Shown: positions 3,570-19,890 of the stretch, in pieces
Numbering within the stretch: the first letter of the stretch is position 1
How the letters are laid out: each line of letters starts with the position of its first letter
Assembly: GCA_045863475.1 (NCBI GenBank)
Contig: BTUR01000004.1
Location: 2,628 to 66,627, forward strand
Direction: 5' to 3'
DNA: 64,000 nt
Source of the DNA: Candidatus Campbellbacteria bacterium
Lineage (GTDB): Bacteria; Patescibacteriota; Minisyncoccia; Phycocordibacterales; EsbW-18
Made by a program: the position numbers and the translations under genes
The notes under the pieces: generated by a model
Seen by the model: the letters and a program-made list of their open reading frames with translations, nothing else
Told to the model about the DNA's origin: nothing
Database searches by the model: none

Positions 3570-4364
3570 ATGACGACCACAGAAAACCAGAAATCAGTCG
3601 CAGACCTCTTTGCTGCAGGAGCGCACTATGCGTACCCGAAAGCGCGTCGGCACCCGAGCACGAAGAAGTTCATTTTCGGCACAAAAGGCCCTGTAGAGAT
3701 TTTCGATATTGAAAAAACAGCGGATGCGTTGACACGCGCCGTTGAGGCCGTGCAGAAAGTTGCCATGACAGGGAAGAAGGTGCTCTTCGTCGGCGGAAAG
3801 CGCGAGGCACAGAAGGCGGTTCGCAATCTCGCAACGGTTGCAGGCGCGCCGTTTGTTGCAGGACGCTGGGTTGGCGGAACGCTCTCCAATTTCGATATCA
3901 TCAAAAAGCGCGTCGAAAAACTCCTGACGCTTTCTGAAGAACGCGAGCAGGGAACGCTTACGAAGTACACCAAGAAGGAACGATTGCTTATTGATCGACA
4001 GATTAAGCGTCTTGAAGAAATGTTCGGCGGTATCAAAACGATGTCGCAGACTCCGGGCATGCTCGTTGTTGTTGATCCGAAGCACGAGAAAATCGCAATT
4101 GCAGAAGCGACGATGCTTAAGATTCCCATTGTTGCGCTCGCGAACTCCGACTGTGACATTTCAACCATCACGTACCCGATTCCGGGAAGTGATGCGAATG
4201 TTGCGGCAATTACGTACGTTCTTGAACAGCTCACCGGTGCGTATGCACGCGGTGCAGCAGAAGCCCCGAAGAAAACTATTACCATGGAGCGAAAGCCGCA
4301 GCACGAGGCGCACACAGGTGGACGCCGCCTTCCGCGCTCCCCGCGCCCTGCGTCTCGCGCATAA
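3570..4364 (+). CDS. rpsB: 30S ribosomal protein S2
   Basis: N-terminus LFAAGAHYAYPKARRHP...KKFIFG.KG...IFDIEKT and the central VLFVGGKREAQ region are typical of S2. Confidence 0.9.
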   Translation: MTTTENQKSVADLFAAGAHYAYPKARRHPSTKKFIFGTKGPVEIFDIEKTADALTRAVEAVQKVAMTGKKVLFVGGKREAQKAVRNLATVAGAPFVAGRWVGGTLSNFDIIKKRVEKLLTLSEEREQGTLTKYTKKERLLIDRQIKRLEEMFGGIKTMSQTPGMLVVVDPKHEKIAIAEATMLKIPIVALANSDCDISTITYPIPGSDANVAAITYVLEQLTGAYARGAAEAPKKTITMERKPQHEAHTGGRRLPRSPRPASRA

Positions 4365-4375
4365 TCTTTTTTGTT

Positions 4376-4840
4376 ATGTCAGTCAGTGTTTCTGATATCA
4401 AACAATTGCGCGACCAAACCGGTCTGCCGATGAACCAGTGCAAAGAGGCGCTCGAAGTGTCCGGCGGTGACGTTGAAAAGGCGCTTGAATTTTTGAAAGA
4501 AAAAGGCGCAGTGATTGCATCAAAAAAAGCGGGACGAAGCCTTGGATCAGGTTCAATTCAGGCGTACGTACACGGCCACGGTGGTGTTGCTGCACTCGCG
4601 GAGTTGCTCTGCGAGACGGACTTCGTTGCGCGTAATCCGGAATTCCAGACAGTCGCAAAAGATATCGCAATGCAGATTGCCGCGACCGACGATGCGGTAC
4701 TCGAACAGGGTGCAGATGAAATTCTCAAACAGCCTTTTTTCAAAAATCCTGAAGTGACGATTGCACAGCTTATCGAGAGCGCGGTGCAGAAATTCGGCGA
4801 GCGCACGGAGCTCGGCCGCTTCATTAAGTACACTATCTAA
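4376..4840 (+). CDS. tsf: elongation factor Ts, short form (154 aa)
   Basis: IKQLRDQTGLPMNQCKEALEVSGGDVEKALEFLKEKG (UBA-like N-terminus) and LAELLCETDFVARNPEFQ (EF-Ts core). Immediately downstream of rpsB, the usual rpsB-tsf order. Confidence 0.85.
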   Translation: MSVSVSDIKQLRDQTGLPMNQCKEALEVSGGDVEKALEFLKEKGAVIASKKAGRSLGSGSIQAYVHGHGGVAALAELLCETDFVARNPEFQTVAKDIAMQIAATDDAVLEQGADEILKQPFFKNPEVTIAQLIESAVQKFGERTELGRFIKYTI

Positions 4841-4881
4841 CACGCTGGCGCGGTCCCGCGTCACGTGTCATCATATTTATT

Positions 4882-5361
4882 ATGACCGTACTCGCGAGCA
4901 TGTTCGGTGGCTCCATACTCCTTATCTCCGCTTTTTTTGCATTCAAGGATTGGGAACGGGGACGCGGCAGGGAAACAGCGTTCTCCGCGCTTTTAAACCG
5001 GTATTCACCATCGGTAGAGCGCTTGTATCGCCGTGTTGTCGCCAAAATTGTTTTCTGGTTGATGGTAGCCGTCGCCACCGTCCGTGCGCTGTTTCGTTTT
5101 GGGTTTGTGCGTGCACTGACGCTTACCCGGGCTACGGTTGCGGTGCTCGGTGCGCACATGATTCATGTCGCACGTGGGGAGCATTTGATTGCAGAAGGAA
5201 AGATACCTTCCACATATTTTAAACTTCTCCATCGACACAAAGAGCGAATTAACGGTACGGATATCCCGAAAGGTATTATCCATCAGGGTATACCCCAGCG
5301 GGTGAAAGTGACGGTTGCCGAGGAAACTAGTAGCGCGACCGCTCCTGCGCAGGTAGAATAG
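4882..5361 (+). CDS. hypothetical membrane protein
   Basis: ORF with several hydrophobic helices and no known motif. Confidence 0.45.
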   Translation: MTVLASMFGGSILLISAFFAFKDWERGRGRETAFSALLNRYSPSVERLYRRVVAKIVFWLMVAVATVRALFRFGFVRALTLTRATVAVLGAHMIHVARGEHLIAEGKIPSTYFKLLHRHKERINGTDIPKGIIHQGIPQRVKVTVAEETSSATAPAQVE

Positions 5362-5370
5362 TCCTCGTAC

Positions 5371-5446
5371 GCCGCCTTAGCTCAGTCGGTAGAGCAACAC
5401 TTTTGTAAAGTGAAGGTCCCCAGTTCGAATCTGGGAGGCGGCTCCA
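5371..5446 (+). tRNA. tRNA-Thr (anticodon UGU), CCA encoded
   Basis: Manual cloverleaf. Acceptor gccgcct/aggcggc; D-arm gctc-agtcggta-gagc; anticodon stem cact/agtg with loop tTTGTaa; T-arm cccag-ttcgaat-ctggg; discriminator t; then cca. Confidence 0.85.
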
Positions 5447-5618
5447 AACAAGCCTGTCGGGAGAGAAGTGAGGTGCCGTGGCACGTCACTTCTTTTGTTA
5501 GTGAAGGTCCCCAGTTCGAATCTGGGAGGCGGCTCCAAACAAGCCTGTCGGGAGAGAAGTGAGGTGCCGTGGCACGTCACTTCTTTTGTTAGTGAAGGTC
5601 CCCAGTTCGAATCTGGGA
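5447..5618 (+). repeat. Two extra perfect tandem copies of an 85-bp unit: a 47-bp spacer containing a terminator-like hairpin, then the 38-nt 3' part of tRNA-Thr (anticodon-stem 3' strand to CCA)
   Basis: Unit aacaagcctgtcgggagagaagtgaggtgccgtggcacgtcacttcttttgtt + agtgaaggtccccagttcgaatctgggaggcggctcca is repeated at 5447-5531 and 5532-5618. The last copy ends ctcac. The spacer hairpin is agaagtgaggtgcc/ggcacgtcacttct followed by ttttgtt. Confidence 0.85.
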
Positions 5619-5683
5619 GGCGGCTCACAGAGATTAATTGAACAGCGCGTCCTTAGCTTGCCGGGACGCGTTTTTCTTCCCCT

Positions 5684-6442
5684 GTGCCAAAGACGGCACG
5701 GACAGGTATAATGATTTTTATGCAAGAACGAAAAGAATATCACCACCCGATGACCCAAGCGATACGCGATGCCGTGCGTATCTTCTCTAGTATGGGATTC
5801 TCCGTCGCCTCCGGTCCCGAGATTGAGGATGAGTGGCACAACTTTACCGCACTTAACGTTCCCAAAGATCACCCCGCGCGTGACATGCAGGACACGTTCT
5901 GGCTTCCCGACGGACGCGTATTGCGCACGCACACGTCTCCGGTGCAGGTTCGGTGGATGCAGACGCACGAGCCGCCAATTCGCGTTATTGTTCCGGGCAA
6001 AGTATTTCGCAACGAGGCAACCGACATGACGCACGAGGCGCAGTTCTACCAACTTGAAGGCCTTGTTATTTCAGAGGACACGACGCTCGCGCATCTCAAG
6101 GGAGTGCTCGAAAAGTTTTTTAAAGAATTTTTCCACGGAGAAGTTGAAGTTCGGCTTCGTCCGAGTTTCTTCGGATTCACCGAACCCTCTGTTGAGGTGG
6201 ACATGCGTCTTTCCGGCGAAGGGGCACCAGCGAAACTGCGCGACCGATGGATTGAGGTTATGGGCGCCGGCATGGTGCATCCGCACGTGCTCAATAATGC
6301 CGGTATTGATCCAAAGCGTTTCCAGGGATTTGCATTTGGTGGTGGTATTGAGCGCCTCTGCATGCTCCGCTGGGGGATTGATGATGTCCGCGTGTTCCAC
6401 GGAGGTGATATCAGGTTTCCGATGCAATTTCCCGCTGAATAA
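5684..6442 (+). CDS. pheS: phenylalanine--tRNA ligase alpha subunit, short form lacking the N-terminal extension
   Basis: Class II motifs: FTALNVPKDHPARDMQDTFWL, HTSPVQVRWM, FRNEATDMTHEAQFYQLEGLVI, FRPSFFGFTEPSVEVDM. The true start may be an internal Met (5711, 5720 or 5747). Confidence 0.85.
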   Translation: MPKTARTGIMIFMQERKEYHHPMTQAIRDAVRIFSSMGFSVASGPEIEDEWHNFTALNVPKDHPARDMQDTFWLPDGRVLRTHTSPVQVRWMQTHEPPIRVIVPGKVFRNEATDMTHEAQFYQLEGLVISEDTTLAHLKGVLEKFFKEFFHGEVEVRLRPSFFGFTEPSVEVDMRLSGEGAPAKLRDRWIEVMGAGMVHPHVLNNAGIDPKRFQGFAFGGGIERLCMLRWGIDDVRVFHGGDIRFPMQFPAE

Positions 6443-6444
6443 CT

Positions 6445-6729
6445 ATGAATCCCGATAGTGTAAAAAAGTTTTACTATGTGTATGTGCTCAAGAGTCGGAC
6501 AAATAATCAGTGGTATGTTGGCTATACATCTGATCTTCGAAAGAGATACATCGAGCATAGCCGCGGTAAGAGCACATACACAAAAAAACGCGGTCCGTAC
6601 GAATTAATATATTACGAAGCATACAGAAACGAGCAAGATGCAGTGTCACGAGAACAGCAACTTAAATCTGGGCAAGGGAAAATGTATCTACGCAGGAGAA
6701 TTAAAAGATTTTTAACACTATCGGGATGA
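6445..6729 (+). CDS. stand-alone GIY-YIG nuclease family protein (94 aa)
   Basis: YYVYVLKS...WYVGYTSDLRKRYIEH matches the GIY-YIG (URI domain) signature. Located between pheS and pheT with 4-bp overlaps on both sides. Confidence 0.7.
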   Translation: MNPDSVKKFYYVYVLKSRTNNQWYVGYTSDLRKRYIEHSRGKSTYTKKRGPYELIYYEAYRNEQDAVSREQQLKSGQGKMYLRRRIKRFLTLSG

Positions 6730-9149
6730 AAGTATCTCGCGCATGGCTCCAAACTTTTTTTGAAACACCACTTCCCGACGCGGGTGAACTTGAACGTGTC
6801 CTCACCTTCGGTGCATTTGAAGTTGAAGGTGTCGAGGAGAATGGTGAGGACAGTATTCTGGACGTGAAAGTGTTGCCAAATCGCGCGCATGACTGTTTGT
6901 GTCACCGCGGTATTGCAAAAGAACTCTCGGTACTGCTTGGGCTATCGCTGTCGCGTGATCCGCTTACGGAGGAGGTGCCGGCATTTGATTCTTTCGGTGA
7001 TGTCTCGGTTTCCGTTGAAAACACCTCCGCGTGTCCTGCGTACCATGCCGCACGCGTAAGCGGTGTGCGCGTCGGCCCGTCACCTGTGTGGCTTGTTAAG
7101 CGTCTTGCAAGCATCGGTCAGCGCTCCATCAATAACGTTGTGGATGCGACGAATCTCGTTATGAATGAACTGGGACAGCCACTGCACGCATTTGATGCCT
7201 CAAAGCTTGGTGGTGCAGACGGGAAGAAAATGATTGCGGTGCGCATGGCGCGCCCGGGCGAGTCGATAACCATCCTCGGAGGTGACAGCTACACGCTTGC
7301 GGATACGGTACAGCTTATTACCGATGCGGCGACGGACACACCTATTGCAATGGCGGGTATCAAGGGAGGAAGTGTTGCTGAGGTTGATGAGAATACAACC
7401 GACATTATTCTCGAGTCCGCGAAATTCCATCCGACGCTGACACGAAAAGCATCACAACTCCTGAAGTTGCGAACCGATGCGTCGTATCGTTTTGAAAATG
7501 AGATTCCGGATGAATTGCCGGCGTACGCGCTTTCCGAACTCATCACGCTCATTAAAGACATCGCCGGAGGCGAGCTTTCCGGATATGCGGGCGTTGTGCG
7601 CCCACGCGCCTCACTGCCGTACAAAATCGGCATCTCATCGCGTGAGGCCAACAAACTTCTCGGTACAGACCTTTCAGACAGTGACATGGAAAAGATTCTT
7701 ACTCGGTACGGTTTTGCATATGAAATGATAGAGGACCCGAGAGTGCGGATTGTGGGGCGCGCGAAGAGTGTTATTGGCGCTCCGTACAAACGCCTGGCGC
7801 GCATCCGCTTCGACACTCCCAAGAGTTTCAACTGCTCATCACTGTCGGCATGGTGTGCGATTGAGGCAGGGTGTTCATTTGGCGTTGCACGTATCGCGAT
7901 TGACCAGTTCGCGTATCTTGATCCTGTTGATGAAAAAAAATTGGCACCCGGTGACTTGGTGTTTACAAATACCGGAGAGGTTCGCACGATGGGGGGTGAG
8001 ATGTATTCAAATGTGCTGGACACGATGGTTCAGGATGAGGCAATTCGCACAAAGACATTGGAATTTTTGCCGGGGACAGATATCGGCCACGGTGTTGATC
8101 ACGTCGGCATCTACACAGGCGACGGAAAGGTTATACATACATCTTCAAAAACAGGGACGGTTGCCGAAGAGGTGCTCTCAGAGAGTCCGACGTTTGCACA
8201 CGAGAAATGGTACCGACGCATCGTCACAGAGGACGAGGTGCGGTTTTCAGTAACAGTTCCGTTTTCACGTCTTGATATGCGCTTGCCCGCCGACCTGATT
8301 GAAGAAATCGGCCGCGCGTACGGGTATGAGAATATTGCCGCACGTGAATTGCCCGCTCCTACCACATCGCCTGAACAGAATAATCTCTGGTGTGCCTCTG
8401 AGACGGTTCGCCGTGCGCTTGCTGGTCTCGGATTTATTGAGGTGTACTCGTATACATTGCGGGAAAACGGGGCGGTGAAACTCGTTAATGCACTTGCGGA
8501 AGATAAAGCATTCATTCGCAGCTCGCTTGTTCCCGGTGTCGTCGAGGCTCTTGAAAAAGGAGAATACCACGCGCCATTTTTGGGACTCACTGAGGTGTTG
8601 GTGTTTGAAATCGGCAATGTGTTTGATGAAAAGAATGAGCACCTGCACGTGTGTATCGGTGCCCGGCCGCTTGCGAGTGCAAAACGCAGTGAGAAGGCAA
8701 ATGCAAAACTCCTGGAAGCGAAAGAGACACTGGAGAAGGCGCTTGGTGTTCACCTCGATGAACAGGTGGGTGAAGAGACGCTTGCGTTCAATCTCAGTTC
8801 CGCCATTGAAGGCAAAACATATGCGTGTCCGGAGTTTTCTCCCGTTGTAGAGTCAGCAGCGTATATTCCACCGTCCTCGTACCCGTTTATGTTGCGCGAC
8901 ATCGCCGTGTGGGTTCCTGACGGGGAGGGAAGCGGGGATGACATTGTCTCTGTGGTGCGAGAGCATGCGGGAAATTTGTTTGCTCGCGCTGATGTGTTTG
9001 ATACGTTTTCAAAGGAAGGAAAGACCTCGTATGCGTACCATCTTGTATTTCAATCGCATGAAAAGACACTCACGGATGCGGAGGTAAACGAAATCATGCA
9101 AAAGGTGACGGATAGCCTTAACGGACGCACGGGTTGGCAAGTTCGTTAA
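6726..9149 (+). CDS. pheT: phenylalanine--tRNA ligase beta subunit carrying a roughly 170-aa NlpC/P60-like (papain-fold) insertion within or after the B5 domain
   Basis: The N-terminus MKVSRAWLQTFFETPLPDAGELERVLTFGAFEVEGVE, B3/4 and B5 regions, VTVPFSRLDMRLPADLIEEIGRAYGYENI, and the C-terminal FDX-ACB-like end are all PheT. The insertion (FNCSSLSAWC...PGDLVF...HVGIYTGDGKVIHTSS) has Cys and His motifs in NlpC/P60 order. Confidence 0.9.
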   Translation: MKVSRAWLQTFFETPLPDAGELERVLTFGAFEVEGVEENGEDSILDVKVLPNRAHDCLCHRGIAKELSVLLGLSLSRDPLTEEVPAFDSFGDVSVSVENTSACPAYHAARVSGVRVGPSPVWLVKRLASIGQRSINNVVDATNLVMNELGQPLHAFDASKLGGADGKKMIAVRMARPGESITILGGDSYTLADTVQLITDAATDTPIAMAGIKGGSVAEVDENTTDIILESAKFHPTLTRKASQLLKLRTDASYRFENEIPDELPAYALSELITLIKDIAGGELSGYAGVVRPRASLPYKIGISSREANKLLGTDLSDSDMEKILTRYGFAYEMIEDPRVRIVGRAKSVIGAPYKRLARIRFDTPKSFNCSSLSAWCAIEAGCSFGVARIAIDQFAYLDPVDEKKLAPGDLVFTNTGEVRTMGGEMYSNVLDTMVQDEAIRTKTLEFLPGTDIGHGVDHVGIYTGDGKVIHTSSKTGTVAEEVLSESPTFAHEKWYRRIVTEDEVRFSVTVPFSRLDMRLPADLIEEIGRAYGYENIAARELPAPTTSPEQNNLWCASETVRRALAGLGFIEVYSYTLRENGAVKLVNALAEDKAFIRSSLVPGVVEALEKGEYHAPFLGLTEVLVFEIGNVFDEKNEHLHVCIGARPLASAKRSEKANAKLLEAKETLEKALGVHLDEQVGEETLAFNLSSAIEGKTYACPEFSPVVESAAYIPPSSYPFMLRDIAVWVPDGEGSGDDIVSVVREHAGNLFARADVFDTFSKEGKTSYAYHLVFQSHEKTLTDAEVNEIMQKVTDSLNGRTGWQVR

Positions 9150-9193
9150 ATGCGAAAGCGGCGCAGAGAGGATCTCTGCGCCGCGGGGTTTCT

Positions 9194-16329: not shown

Positions 16330-19300
16330 ATGAAAACAAACTTCGCACACATGCTTTCAACGACAACCGCAAAGGCGCTCTCCATCGGCGTAACGCTTTT
16401 TATCGTTACACTGTCGGTGGTTGCACCTCAGACGATTGCATCGCTTGATGCACAAATCGCAGCTGACACGGACAGTGAAAAGTCCGAGAAGGCGGAGCCC
16501 CAGGAACAGGAACCTCAGGAGCAGGAGCCCACAACGACGGGAGGCGGTTCTTCAACGAAGCCGAACCCGAAAGACGAAAGTCCGGAGGTGTCGTGTGAGA
16601 CACCGACGACTGAGGAAGGATTCCGCGCCATCCGCGACAACATGGGTCGCTGGGATTGGGACCTTGAGAACGGCAGCGTGACAATCCGCAACAACGACGA
16701 GAACTGCTCATGGCCCGTTGGTTTGAAATCATTCAAAATCTACAGTGAACAGAATCCGCAAAACGGCCAAACTCGTTTCGACGAGGATTGGGCGACGCTT
16801 GCTCCCGGTGAGACACGTACGTTTCAGGTAGATGTTCCGTCATGCCGCTACCAGCTCGACGCGCTCATTTTCCCGGCGATGCCGTACACGTCTGCAAAAC
16901 TCATTCGCGGTGAAATTAATTTTGATCTCCCGGTATGTGAGCGTCAGCTGGAGCCCCCGGCGTGTCCGTTTACACCCGAAGATGGCACTGTTGTCGTTTT
17001 CTCTCAGGACAGCGGCACCTACCTCGCATCCACTCCCGCATCGCGTCACTCTATCGGTCCGATGCATGTAACGCTTCCTCCCGGCACGTACACCGTCAAG
17101 ACGTTTTCATGGGACGGCTATGTCGGCCGCGAAAACGTGATGCAGATCCACGAGCAGTGGAACGTCATGCTCCGCGACGGCGCGGGTACAACGACAGGAC
17201 TTGCCGGTCCGACGACCGATCTCGCGGATCAAGTTCGCCAGACATCTCGTATTGATACATTCATCAACGCATTCACGGCGACCGCGACGACAACGCGCAT
17301 TTTCGCGCTGCACGCATTCCCGAACGACACCTCAAGCGCAAACAGCGTCGTACCTGTCTGTGCGGCTTTCAAGCGCACAGCACTGCCGCCCGCTGATCCT
17401 GCAACGCTTACGGTTATAAAGACCGTTATCAACGACGACGGTGGCACGCGACAAGTATCAGACTTTAATCTCTACGTTGGCACACAGAATGTAACGAGTG
17501 GTGCTACAAACGAATTTGCTCCCGGCACGTACACCGTTCGCGAAGACAATCTTCCGGGTTACACAGCATCAAATTGGATGGGGGATTGTTCTGCAACGGG
17601 ACAGGTAACGCTCGCGGCTGGACAGCACAAAATCTGCCGCATCACCAACAACGACAACCCGCCCGTTCCTGCAACCATTACGCTCATCAAGACCGTTCTC
17701 AACGACGATGGTGGTACGGCAGAAGTTTCTGACTTCAATCTCTACATCGGCAACAATGCGGTGCAGAGTGGTGTTCCGATGCAAATCGGCCCCGGCACAT
17801 ACACTGCACGTGAAGACCAGCTCCCTGGCTACACGGCATCAGATTGGATGGGGGACTGTTCGGCAAACGGTTCAGTAACGGTTGCAGCCGGAGAGCACAA
17901 GATTTGCCGCATCACCAACAATGATATTCCGACTGAGCCGCAGCACGCGACACTCACCGTTATCAAGACTGTTCTCAACGATGACGGTGGTACGGCAGAA
18001 GTTTCTGATTTTAATCTGTACGTCGGCACGATGCAGGTTACTTCCGGTGCCACGAACGCGTTTAACCCGGGTACGTATACCGTTCGCGAAGACCAGCTTC
18101 CCGGCTACACGGCGTCAGACTGGATGGGCGACTGTTCAGCTGACGGAGAAGTGACGCTTGTTCTCGGAGAACACAAGATTTGTCGCATCACCAACAATGA
18201 CAATCCGTTTAACCCGGATGACGCAACACTCACGGTCATCAAGACCGTTATCAATGACGACGGTGGCACGGCGCAGGTGGAGGATTTTCACCTCTACGTC
18301 GACGAACTTCAGGTTATAAGCGGTGAAGAAAACCGTTTCGCTCCCGGTACCTATACTGTGCACGAAGCGAACCTCCCGGGGTACGTCGCATCCGCTTGGA
18401 TGGGTGACTGTTCGGCAGACGGACAAGTTACGCTTGCATCAGGACAAAATAAAATCTGCCGCATCACCAACAACGACACACCCATCACTAACGGTGAGAC
18501 AACGATTACGCTTATTAAGACGGTCATCAACGACGATGGCGGCACTGCACAGGTATCTGACTTCAATCTCTACGTCGGGAACACGCAGGTGACGAGCGGT
18601 AACGCACTGTCAGTTACACCTGGCACGTACGCGGTTCGCGAGGATAACCTTTCAGGCTACACCGCATCAGGTTGGACGGGCGACTGTTCATCTGACGGTT
18701 CGGTAACACTTGCATCAGGCGATCACAAAATCTGCCGCATCACCAACAACGACAACGCCGGTGGAGGCGGAGGCGGTGGCGGAGGCGGTGGTGGCGGCGG
18801 TAGCCGACGCCCGCGCGTGACACTCTTCTCCAACCCGGAGATCTTGGGTGCATCCATCTCGCTCTCTCAAGTTCCGTACACCGGTCTTGGCACGAGCATC
18901 CTGCAGATTATCCTCTTCCTTATCGGTCTCGTTGCAATCGCAGGCGGGGTTACCTACATGCTCCTTCGCCGCCGATTCCCGGCAGCGGGAATTGAAATCC
19001 CGATGGAGCACGCGCCGATTCTTAAAGCACAAACACACACAACACCGGCACCGCGTGTTGCATACGACGACCTTGACGTTGCCGTTGCAGACGAAGGACA
19101 AGACGAGCTTGCGGTGTACGGTGAATATGAACACGCATTTGTTGTGGAAGAGACTCCTCGAACATCTATGCAGGTTCCGACGAATCTCCCGGTTGCGCCG
19201 GTAGCGGTTGCCAGTGTGGTACGTCAGTCGCCGGCAGCTCGCATGGTGCAAGAACACCGTGAAGAGAAACGACAGGTAGCGGTATCACTTGGTAAACTCC

Positions 19301-19890
19301 AGAATGCGGCACGCGCATCACAGTCCATTATTTCAGAAGACGGTCTGAAGCTTGTCATTGCATCTGCTGAAGGCAACGAACAGAAAGCGCTTGAACGCCT
19401 CACGGCAGTTATTGAAGTGGCCAAGACGCGCTACCCGCGCGAAGACGGCTGGCTCGTGCTTGATGCAACACGCATCCGCGAATCACTCTTTATCTCGATT
19501 CTCTCAACAGTCCCGCTTTTCATTGAATGGATTGTTCGTGGAGAAGACCGCAACATCTTCAGCTTCCTGCGCATGCTTAAGTCACAGAACCAGCCGGTTG
19601 CAGACTTCATCCGTAAGGTCGTTGCAGAGCTCGACAATGCGCACCGCGCACGCCTCGAAGGGGCAAGCGACGTGACCGTTGACCCGCATGTTGCCGAGGT
19701 AACGTACCATCTCTCAAATCGTGATTTGGAGATGATCGTCTCGGAGCTGCTCTCAGGTGTTGACGAACGATATGACTCCGCCTTTACGTCCGTTCGCCTC
19801 GCTTTGGTTCGCGTGCTCGATATCGTCAAAGCAAACCACATGACGCGTATTGGGGGCACCTACGCCTTCCAGGAGGGCTCGGAGGCCTAA
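16330..19890 (+). CDS. large cell-surface protein (1186 aa): signal peptide, five tandem roughly 93-aa prealbumin/Cna-B-like repeats, a Gly14 linker, a sorting-signal-like segment (VPYTG, TM, RRRF), then a roughly 320-aa C-terminal domain
   Basis: N-terminal hydrophobic signal. Repeats 'TLTVIKTV(I/L)NDDGGTAxVSDFNLYVG...PGTYTVREDxLPGYTASxWMGDCSxDGxVTLxxGxHKICRITNND' occur five times. GGGGGGGGGGGGGG. Then SLSQVPYTGLGTSILQIILFLIGLVAIAGGVTYMLLRRRF. Adjacent to the sortase gene. Confidence 0.75.
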   Translation: MKTNFAHMLSTTTAKALSIGVTLFIVTLSVVAPQTIASLDAQIAADTDSEKSEKAEPQEQEPQEQEPTTTGGGSSTKPNPKDESPEVSCETPTTEEGFRAIRDNMGRWDWDLENGSVTIRNNDENCSWPVGLKSFKIYSEQNPQNGQTRFDEDWATLAPGETRTFQVDVPSCRYQLDALIFPAMPYTSAKLIRGEINFDLPVCERQLEPPACPFTPEDGTVVVFSQDSGTYLASTPASRHSIGPMHVTLPPGTYTVKTFSWDGYVGRENVMQIHEQWNVMLRDGAGTTTGLAGPTTDLADQVRQTSRIDTFINAFTATATTTRIFALHAFPNDTSSANSVVPVCAAFKRTALPPADPATLTVIKTVINDDGGTRQVSDFNLYVGTQNVTSGATNEFAPGTYTVREDNLPGYTASNWMGDCSATGQVTLAAGQHKICRITNNDNPPVPATITLIKTVLNDDGGTAEVSDFNLYIGNNAVQSGVPMQIGPGTYTAREDQLPGYTASDWMGDCSANGSVTVAAGEHKICRITNNDIPTEPQHATLTVIKTVLNDDGGTAEVSDFNLYVGTMQVTSGATNAFNPGTYTVREDQLPGYTASDWMGDCSADGEVTLVLGEHKICRITNNDNPFNPDDATLTVIKTVINDDGGTAQVEDFHLYVDELQVISGEENRFAPGTYTVHEANLPGYVASAWMGDCSADGQVTLASGQNKICRITNNDTPITNGETTITLIKTVINDDGGTAQVSDFNLYVGNTQVTSGNALSVTPGTYAVREDNLSGYTASGWTGDCSSDGSVTLASGDHKICRITNNDNAGGGGGGGGGGGGGGSRRPRVTLFSNPEILGASISLSQVPYTGLGTSILQIILFLIGLVAIAGGVTYMLLRRRFPAAGIEIPMEHAPILKAQTHTTPAPRVAYDDLDVAVADEGQDELAVYGEYEHAFVVEETPRTSMQVPTNLPVAPVAVASVVRQSPAARMVQEHREEKRQVAVSLGKLQNAARASQSIISEDGLKLVIASAEGNEQKALERLTAVIEVAKTRYPREDGWLVLDATRIRESLFISILSTVPLFIEWIVRGEDRNIFSFLRMLKSQNQPVADFIRKVVAELDNAHRARLEGASDVTVDPHVAEVTYHLSNRDLEMIVSELLSGVDERYDSAFTSVRLALVRVLDIVKANHMTRIGGTYAFQEGSEA
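17390..18790 (+). repeat. Five tandem roughly 280-bp coding repeats (the prealbumin-like repeats of the surface protein)
   Basis: Repeats are evident in both protein and nucleotide sequence (recurring acgcttacggt.ataaagaccgtt.tcaacgacgatggtgg..). Confidence 0.7.

Follow-up and report, generated by a model that had tools for sequence, protein, structure and literature searches.

Few enzymes are as conserved as the aminoacyl-tRNA synthetases. It is unusual for one of these to keep a catalytically intact foreign hydrolase within it throughout a major bacterial radiation, and the fact asks to be explained in terms of function. Such a case is presented by pheT, the gene for the beta subunit of phenylalanyl-tRNA synthetase (PheRS), in a stretch of 64,000 nucleotides (hereafter the window; contig BTUR01000004.1 of GenBank assembly GCA_045863475.1, positions 2,628 to 66,627 of the forward strand) from a Candidatus Campbellbacteria bacterium, an organism that NCBI places in the Parcubacteria group of Patescibacteria. 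The B5 domain of this PheT is split by a domain of the NlpC/P60 family of cysteine hydrolases. What does a hydrolase do inside a synthetase? From the alignment, predicted structure, distribution and conservation of the insert, assisted by an analysis of related loci in which most of PheT is gone, we hypothesize, at a probability of roughly 0.55, that the nested domain is an active cytoplasmic thiol hydrolase with a selected function of its own, the best candidate by homology being an amidase of the gamma-D-glutamyl type.

The gene is a single intact open reading frame (ORF) of 807 codons, whose product is identical to a protein of a 'Candidatus Campbellbacteria' metagenome-assembled genome; it is laid out in the window as follows.

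6726..9149, plus strand: pheT, PheRS beta subunit, with domains B1, B3/B4, split B5, NlpC/P60, B6/B7 and B8, without B2
7608..7724, plus strand: N-terminal half of B5 (residues 295-333), aligning to Thermus thermophilus PheT up to residue 436
7725..8240, plus strand: NlpC/P60 (C40) cysteine hydrolase domain (residues 334-505), nested in the B5 hairpin and recognised by PF00877, Foldseek and phmmer
8241..8345, plus strand: C-terminal half of B5 (residues 506-540), with acidic residues D517, D523, E526 and E527, aligning to T. thermophilus PheT from residue 441

Pfam assigns B3_4 to residues 102-281, tRNA_synthFbeta to residues 543-673 and FDX-ACB to residues 717-807, and finds B5 (PF03484) as two stretches around the NLPC_P60 match. 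Aligned with T. thermophilus PheT (1b70_B), the query loses its counterpart after residue 333 (T. thermophilus 436) and regains it at residue 506 (T. thermophilus 441), so that the insertion comprises residues 334-505, that is, 172 amino acids standing in place of a B5 hairpin turn of about four residues. Its junctions fall between YEM and IEDPRV and between TEDEV and RFSV, and two close relatives that lack the insert read GFAYT-PG-FTVVAPFERLD across the insertion point. The GC content of the insert is that of the remaining pheT. An internal start at Met334 was considered and rejected, as homologues have Lys, Ile, Val or Arg at this position. A preliminary description of the locus, made from the sequence alone, had placed an insertion of roughly 170 residues at 7760-8240: the size and the end agree with the alignments to T. 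thermophilus PheT and to the insert-less relatives, whereas the start was set about 35 nucleotides too late. The motifs that it listed are all in frame (FNCSSLSAWC at residues 368-377, PGDLVF at 408-413 and HVGIYTGDGKVIHTSS at 459-474), and it was right that canonical PheT has no such domain, in that no solved PheT structure matched here (from Thermus, Staphylococcus, Pseudomonas, Acinetobacter, E. coli, Salmonella and Mycobacterium) aligns across the insert segment.

The identity of the insert can be read from several directions. The excised segment matches NLPC_P60 (PF00877) with 37.0 bits (E = 3.6e-9) and the full-length protein matches it with 31.1 bits, the Pfam gathering cutoff being 23; the RipC, p60 and MepS profiles of NCBIfam match the insert weakly, and phmmer against the PDB sequences finds the Clostridioides difficile autolysin Acd24020 (7cfl; E = 2.6e-7). 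An AlphaFold model of residues 295-540, built with 122 aligned sequences, has a predicted local distance difference test score (pLDDT) of 95.2 and a predicted template modelling score (pTM) of 0.91; in it the N-terminal B5 half is formed by strand-helix-helix-strand, and both halves meet around a compact alpha+beta domain. When this model was compared with the PDB by Foldseek, the top 50 matches were all NlpC/P60 structures, mostly peptidoglycan hydrolases, the best being again Acd24020 (template modelling score, TM, 0.83-0.89 normalised to the target), with Trichomonas NlpC, MepS/Spr, CwlO, LytE, SagA, RipA/RipB and YkfC-like dipeptidyl-peptidase VI proteins among the further top matches. The modelled fold is papain-like, with the Cys on the N-terminal helix and the His on the beta-sheet that follows, and it carries a Cys-His-polar triad in non-permuted order; the codons of the triad were checked in the window, where the domain also holds an extra segment of its own.

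7833..7835, plus strand: catalytic Cys370 (TGC), in the FNCSS motif
8100..8102, plus strand: catalytic His459 (CAC), in the DHVGIY motif
8136..8138, plus strand: third triad residue His471 (CAT), in the VIHTS motif
7974..8093, plus strand: family-specific sub-insertion in the NlpC/P60 domain (residues 417-456), between PGDLVF and DHVGIY, delimited by alignment with 7cfl

Profile search, structure prediction, fold search (with DL-endopeptidases at the top) and alignment thus agree on the papain-fold domain with a Cys...His...His triad that the preliminary description had suspected in B5. The insert is almost certainly a complete NlpC/P60 domain (MEROPS family C40) at the tip of the B5 beta-hairpin, or 'wing', and it is very probably competent for catalysis, as predicted from its triad. 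No export signal was found: the N-terminus of PheT is the B1 domain, MKVSRAWLQTFFETPLPD..., with no hydrophobic leader. Nor did Pfam find a LysM, SH3b, SPOR, PG_binding or other wall-binding module in PheT; LysM, SH3 or SPOR are present in unrelated NlpC/P60 homologues. The sub-insertion widens the gap between PGDLVF and DHVGIY to about 40 residues, as against about six in canonical NlpC/P60 domains (7cfl residues 86-93, aligned with 83-123 of the query). It is variable in length, being longest in the Campbellbacteria group, in P0001-P0004 and in P0139 (P numbers denote database proteins) and shorter in most other relatives, its C-terminal part has a conserved [ST]-x-E-[FY]-x-P-G-T motif, and it is modelled as beta strands with a pLDDT of 77-87; lying beside the catalytic His, it might shape the substrate groove.

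The nested domain extends far beyond this genome. Of the 120 PheT homologues that match best (41-72% identity), 118 have PF00877 at the same place; the organism names given for them are Campbellbacteria, Kaiserbacteria, Pacebacteria and Paceibacterota. A search with the insert only, exhaustive over 1.8 billion representatives of clusters formed at 50% identity, returned about 140 clusters at E <= 1e-10, the majority being proteins of 770-820 residues matched at residues ~330-500, and more than 200 of the 246 sequences examined are PheT of Parcubacteria/Paceibacteria with the insert at the same site. Cys370 and His459 are each kept in 244 of the 246 diverse homologues and in all 118 of the close set. 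His471 is kept in 234 and in 116, respectively; seven of its 12 exceptions have Q, N or D and five have Y or G, so that the third triad residue is His, Gln, Asn or Asp in 241/246. Mean identity to the window PheT is 39% in the insert, 34.5% in B6/7 and 54.7% in B3/4, figures by which the insert appears to diverge at about the same rate as other domains of PheT. Judged from these comparisons of sequence, the nested NlpC/P60 domain is no recent arrival but an old trait maintained by purifying selection. The preliminary description had inferred a domain acquisition within an essential synthetase; an acquisition in B5 it is, though not a recent, genome-specific event but an ancient trait carried throughout a lineage of the Parcubacteria group. 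Elsewhere in the databases, the proteins P0163 and P0265 consist of tandem arrays of 3-10 NlpC/P60 domains, in which the Cys occurs only in the last or second-to-last copy (FDCSS/FDCSG) and the other copies read FNGSG or FDSSG. P0144, with many matched stretches, is a Calx-beta-like repeat protein and was discarded as a spurious match.

The closest relatives of the insert outside PheT are proteins of 198-241 residues (14 clusters, 25-56% mutual identity) that stand alone, each with a short N-terminal piece of B5, the NlpC/P60 domain and a short C-terminal piece of B5. They score 41-77 bits with PF00877, and all keep the Cys and the first His, the third residue being His or Gln; one of them, P0201, also exceeds the Pfam cutoff for B5, in two stretches. 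In all contexts that show both neighbours (the related loci L001, L010 and L013/L014 and two P0278 contigs), the stand-alone gene adjoins a gene for a 382-389-residue protein that joins PheS and FDX-ACB; in L011 and L012 the order downstream is the same and the upstream side lies beyond the contig end. The start and stop codons of the stand-alone gene and its neighbour overlap in L001, L010, L011 and the P0278 contigs, and the gene order around the stand-alone genes, pheS-X-(Peptidase_C39_2)-gyrB, matches the pheS-pheT-gyrB order of the window. The adjoining synthetase is a class II core fused to FDX-ACB (B8), that is, a monomeric, mitochondria-like PheRS, found in these relatives of the window locus at the following places.

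L001, 108-1256: monomeric PheRS gene
L010, 3853-5001: monomeric PheRS gene
L013, 2794-3963, minus strand: monomeric PheRS gene

Many Parcubacteria have this monomeric enzyme (more than 120 matches at 65-100% identity, under the source names Zambryskibacteria, Minisyncoccia, Paceibacterota and 'Parcubacteria bacterium C7867-005'), and by profile scan it is without the B3/B4 editing domain. The literature searched (open-access papers and bioRxiv) yielded no description of a bacterial monomeric PheRS. We infer that when PheT was dismantled, B8 passed to PheS, B1, B3/B4 and B6/B7 were lost, and B5::NlpC/P60 was kept as a gene of its own. What is left of B5 in the stand-alone forms has been trimmed; it still includes B5 strands and a helix, and the acidic residues of its interface with the alpha subunit are not conserved. 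Given this trimming and the decay of those acidic residues, B5 would serve mainly as a structural socket that holds both ends of the hydrolase. An unresolved neighbour-joining tree of the B5::NlpC/P60 region places the stand-alone forms in several groups mixed with embedded forms.

Two PheTs lack the insert, P0058 (L006, 5001-6932) and P0137, of 639-643 residues. They group among insert-bearing PheTs in a neighbour-joining tree, crude and unrooted, from which the insert columns were excluded, and P0058 is 11th of the 119 homologues by identity to the window PheT outside the insert. No NlpC/P60 gene was found in the flanks of the insert-less loci. The sequences suggest a clean secondary loss of the insert in one lineage.

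The synthetase around the insert is reduced, at 5684-6442 in pheS and at 6726-7030 in pheT, but apparently in working order. Its alpha subunit is encoded upstream.

5684..6442, plus strand: pheS, encoding a short PheRS alpha subunit that lacks the N-terminal coiled coil (PF01409 tRNA-synt_2d, 301 bits)

The real start of pheS is probably the ATG at 5711 or 5720; PheS has about 240-252 residues in the window and 239-266 in relatives. The beta subunit has B1, B3/B4, B5, B6/B7 and B8 and an adjacent pheS, and B2 is absent. In the alignment to 1b70_B, the four positions equivalent to the T. thermophilus editing residues H261, E334, T354 and A356 are all identical in the window PheT, and the acidic B5 residues D517, D523, E526 and E527, which align with T. 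thermophilus D452, D458, E461 and E462, are kept in 116-119 of 120 homologues. We take the latter four to be the Mg2+ site shared with the alpha subunit, and we assume for the B3/B4 editing site and the acidic interface positions the roles that the literature gives them. A full-length AlphaFold model (pLDDT 93.8, pTM 0.77) is matched best in the PDB by bacterial PheRS beta chains (Foldseek, E = 1e-47), with 7cfl matched separately. As far as can be judged from its residues, the PheT around the insert looks functional, keeping those needed for a working PheRS. It scores 366.6 bits (four stretches, E = 2.7e-109) with the equivalog profile TIGR00472, below the cutoff of 402.65; this is because B2 is missing and B5 is split, and the homology is still beyond doubt. 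The low score probably explains why such proteins are named 'hypothetical', 'beta subunit-related' or 'C40 family peptidase' in the source databases. Mukai et al. 2017 (PMC5370408) reported the absence of B2 from many PheRS beta subunits of the candidate phyla radiation (CPR); among the relatives with the insert, one, P0112 (901 residues), still has it.

What, then, might the domain do? We place the hydrolase in the cytoplasm because it has no signal peptide and lies inside a cytosolic enzyme. We also consider it fairly probable that its function is separable from tRNA charging, and selected in its own right, because the lineages with monomeric PheRS kept B5::NlpC/P60 while deleting B1, B3/B4 and B6/B7, and because one lineage seems to have shed the insert from a PheT that is normal in other respects. 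In the reaction that we envisage, the thiolate of Cys370 would attack an amide of the gamma-D-glutamyl-diamino-acid type in a soluble substrate, which might be a muropeptide, a free stem peptide or a peptidoglycan precursor, and the reaction would pass through an acyl-thioester on Cys370, as in the cytoplasmic recycling peptidases of the YkfC type. That the substrate class is a peptidoglycan peptide is a tentative suggestion, made by homology, and somewhat doubtful.

Several points weigh against this explanation. The substrate is assigned by homology of sequence, and NlpC/P60 and the related papain folds (CHAP, LRAT) include amidases, acyltransferases and phospholipases. The cytoplasm holds no sacculus for a peptidoglycan hydrolase to act on, and PheT, as noted above, has no SH3b, LysM or other wall-binding module by Pfam. 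The lasting nesting in PheT and the adjacency to pheS could mean a functional link to PheRS, the sub-insertion that adjoins the catalytic His could have given the substrate groove a different shape, and the secondary loss is suggested by a crude, unrooted neighbour-joining tree.

Comparison with known systems helps to weigh these points. The peptidoglycan DL-endopeptidases (Acd24020, 7cfl; E. coli MepS/Spr; B. subtilis CwlO/LytE; E. faecium SagA) have the same fold (TM 0.75-0.89, target-normalised), the same non-permuted Cys-His-His and, in common with the insert, the motifs G-x-PY, FDCS, PR-S-x-Q, PGDL-F, HVGIY and IHA. Unlike them, the insert has no signal peptide, lipobox or wall-binding domain, is nested in a cytosolic synthetase, bears an extra beta-hairpin sub-insertion of 12-40 residues near the catalytic His, and reads 'YK-GAS-x-x-DAP' where they read 'Y-WGG-x-P-G'. 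Proteins of the YkfC, or dipeptidyl-peptidase VI, type (3h41, 3npf and 4r0k, at Foldseek ranks 11, 23 and 43) are also NlpC/P60 enzymes, and are presumed to act on soluble stem peptides, not on the sacculus; in them, recognition of the stem peptide by its free L-Ala end falls to N-terminal SH3b domains. Neither PheT nor the stand-alone B5::NlpC/P60 proteins have an SH3-type domain, the partner of the hydrolase being the B5 of PheT instead. Canonical PheRS beta subunits (TIGR00472; T. thermophilus 1pys/2iy5, E. coli 3pco) share with the window PheT the domains B1, B3/B4, B5, B6/B7 and B8, the upstream pheS, and the conserved editing-site and acidic B5 residues, and differ from it in having B2 and no 172-residue NlpC/P60 insertion, and in that the window PheT falls below the TIGR00472 cutoff. 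The monomeric PheRS of mitochondria (TIGR00469; human FARS2, 3cmq) has the same PheS core plus FDX-ACB, about 380 residues in all, as the relatives that bear stand-alone genes; unlike the mitochondrial enzyme, theirs is bacterial (Parcubacteria) and lies in pheS-pheT synteny, and the window genome has the two-subunit form.

The explanation that survives best beside a hydrolase with a function of its own takes the products of PheRS as the substrates of the domain. The domain would be either a deacylase (of mis-acylated or otherwise unwanted aminoacyl-tRNA(Phe) or of the aminoacyl-adenylate), adding an editing activity in cis or in trans, or an LRAT-like acyltransferase that takes up Phe as a thioester on Cys370 and hands it to an acceptor amine. 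The attraction of this reading lies in the physical position of the domain inside PheT across a large radiation and in that of the stand-alone form, which is still beside monomeric pheS and is often translationally coupled to it; the monomeric enzyme has no B3/B4 editing domain, B5 strands and helix are still present in the stand-alone forms, and LRAT-family profiles match weakly near the His-His segment (E = 0.001-0.05). A partial analogy is glutathionylspermidine synthetase/amidase, a fusion of a CHAP amidase with the very ligase whose product it cleaves. However, with every canonical B3/B4 editing residue in place, the window PheT has no obvious need of a second editing site; the motifs (PYK-GAS, FDCSS, PR-S-DQ, PGDLVF, DHVGIY, IHA) and the folds matched are those of DL-endopeptidases, not of acyltransferases; the stand-alone forms show no conservation at the B5 positions facing the alpha subunit; and one lineage has apparently dropped the insert with no replacement nearby. 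The hydrolytic domains known from synthetases (PheRS B3/B4, ProRS INS/YbaK, AlaRS/ThrRS AlaX-type, and the DTD-like domain of archaeal ThrRS) are likewise built in and have free-standing homologues, but the insert is a papain-like thiol hydrolase fold, and the B3/B4 site is still there. To our knowledge no editing domain of a synthetase has an NlpC/P60 fold. The top 50 Foldseek matches of the insert were all NlpC/P60 structures, with none of the known deacylase folds (B3/B4-CtdA, YbaK/INS, AlaX, DTD) among them; CtdA (9mkl), a stand-alone relative of B3/B4, is among the weaker matches of full-length PheT.

We therefore regard action on PheRS products as unlikely. Slightly less likely still is its fuller form, in which the nested domain is a hitherto unrecognised papain-fold module associated with the synthetase and working on aminoacyl-tRNA(Phe) or Phe-adenylate, by editing (as a deacylase of a new class) or by aminoacyl transfer. 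In the transferase version, Phe would be loaded as a thioester on Cys370 and handed on, for example to a peptidoglycan stem peptide as acceptor, and the free-standing B5::NlpC/P60 descendants would be partners acting in trans with the bacterial monomeric PheRS.

It is more improbable again that the domain is not in practice a hydrolase but a structural, regulatory or binding module, for instance a ligand or redox sensor that relies on the reactivity of the Cys, or a surface on which another protein docks, the triad then being kept for binding, not turnover. NlpC/P60 copies that are pseudo-enzymes are frequent, as in the arrays of P0163 and P0265 with their one Cys-bearing copy, and the insert sits on an exposed hairpin of B5, a domain with no known catalytic role; but non-catalytic copies normally lose the Cys, and here the Cys and the first His persist at the counts given above, the triad being kept even in stand-alone proteins that share 25-56% identity with each other. 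The chance that the insert is selfish or artefactual is close to nil: a GIY-YIG ORF lies 1 kb upstream and an 11-nucleotide near-repeat, GGTRCGGTTTT, stands on either side of the insert, at 7705 and 8237, but more than 200 independently assembled sequences, with identities as low as 41%, share the architecture, the insert does not differ from the rest of the gene in GC content, the near-repeat is out of frame (532 nucleotides apart) and of a length expected by chance, and the GIY-YIG ORF is absent in insert-bearing relatives. A search for target-site duplications around the insert found only short repeats of chance-expected length. Three specific candidates of this sort were rejected: an intein (there is no Hint or intein match in Pfam, there are no Cys/Ser ... 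His-Asn-Cys/Ser/Thr junction residues, and the fold is NlpC/P60), a recent horizontal insertion linked to GIY-YIG (the insert occurs in relatives without that ORF) and an assembly chimera (the architecture recurs in hundreds of independent assemblies).

The GIY-YIG gene has a separate history.

6445..6729, plus strand: GIY-YIG nuclease-family ORF of 94 amino acids, between pheS and pheT (PF01541, 50.5 bits)

Its end overlaps the start of pheT by four nucleotides, its GC fraction is 0.42 against about 0.53 around it (flanks 0.51-0.57), and no such ORF lies between pheS and pheT in L002, L015 or L016. Of these, L002 was the one true relative returned when a genome collection was scanned with the single window sequence as query. 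It is a strain-specific addition, unrelated to the NlpC/P60 insert and far apart from it in time. The preliminary description had noticed this gene, which is real, and had called the operon a hotspot for insertions, a view that its low GC and its absence in relatives do not bear out. A related copy, probably frameshifted, occurs in L013/L014 at about 442-670.

Downstream of pheT, the window and its relatives have the following features.

9153..9196, no strand assigned: GC-rich hairpin followed by a T-run directly after the pheT stop, read from the sequence
L015, 7426-7929; L016, 8577-9119; L001, 2031-2609; L010, 5707-6285; L011, 1470-2048; L012, 1560-2030: Peptidase_C39_2 genes
9194-9684, minus strand: two overlapping small ORFs (75 and 88 amino acids) in the 700-nucleotide gap between pheT and gyrB

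The hairpin looks like a bidirectional terminator. The Peptidase_C39_2 gene (156-192 amino acids, no signal peptide) is a conserved downstream neighbour both of pheT with the NlpC/P60 domain and of the stand-alone gene, and it may encode a functional partner; tblastn did not find it in the window, and it is also missing from L002. Relatives have it where the window has the 75- and 88-residue ORFs, which may be a small acquired two-gene cassette. Pfam gives no match for these two ORFs or for the ORF at 4882-5361. Farther out, the window contains three further features.

4376-4840, plus strand: ORF of 154 amino acids in the tsf position after rpsB
12512-13612, plus strand: ORF of 366 amino acids with a weak match to IS110/IS116/IS902-family transposases (24 bits, cutoff 21.3)
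14537-19890, plus strand: CARDB protein, sortase and a 1186-residue SpaA-type pilin with five SpaA_2 domains

The ORF in the tsf position has a counterpart of the same length in the syntenic L015, which matches PF00889 EF_TS. The CARDB-sortase-SpaA genes form a pilus cluster of Gram-positive style downstream of gyrB, syntenic with L015; the probable transposase ORF lies between gyrB and this cluster and is not there in L015, which is also of Campbellbacteria. An Rfam scan of window positions 4000-10500 found a tRNA-Thr only.

A full-text search of open-access papers and bioRxiv found no paper linking NlpC/P60 or C40 with PheRS, PheT or B5, and the CPR papers in it that mention PheRS do not mention the insert; the architecture is already visible in precomputed Pfam annotations and in automatic protein names. 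PheTs that fall below the profile cutoff and bear such names can distort estimates of completeness and metabolic reconstructions for CPR genomes. For the bacteria themselves, the lineages in which PheRS has been reduced to a mitochondria-like monomer amount to a natural deletion experiment, in which B5::NlpC/P60 is the only part of PheT kept as such. That it was retained suggests a central role in these ultra-small bacteria, which depend on hosts; the candidates are the salvage or remodelling of peptidoglycan peptides, or a step coupled to Phe-tRNA.

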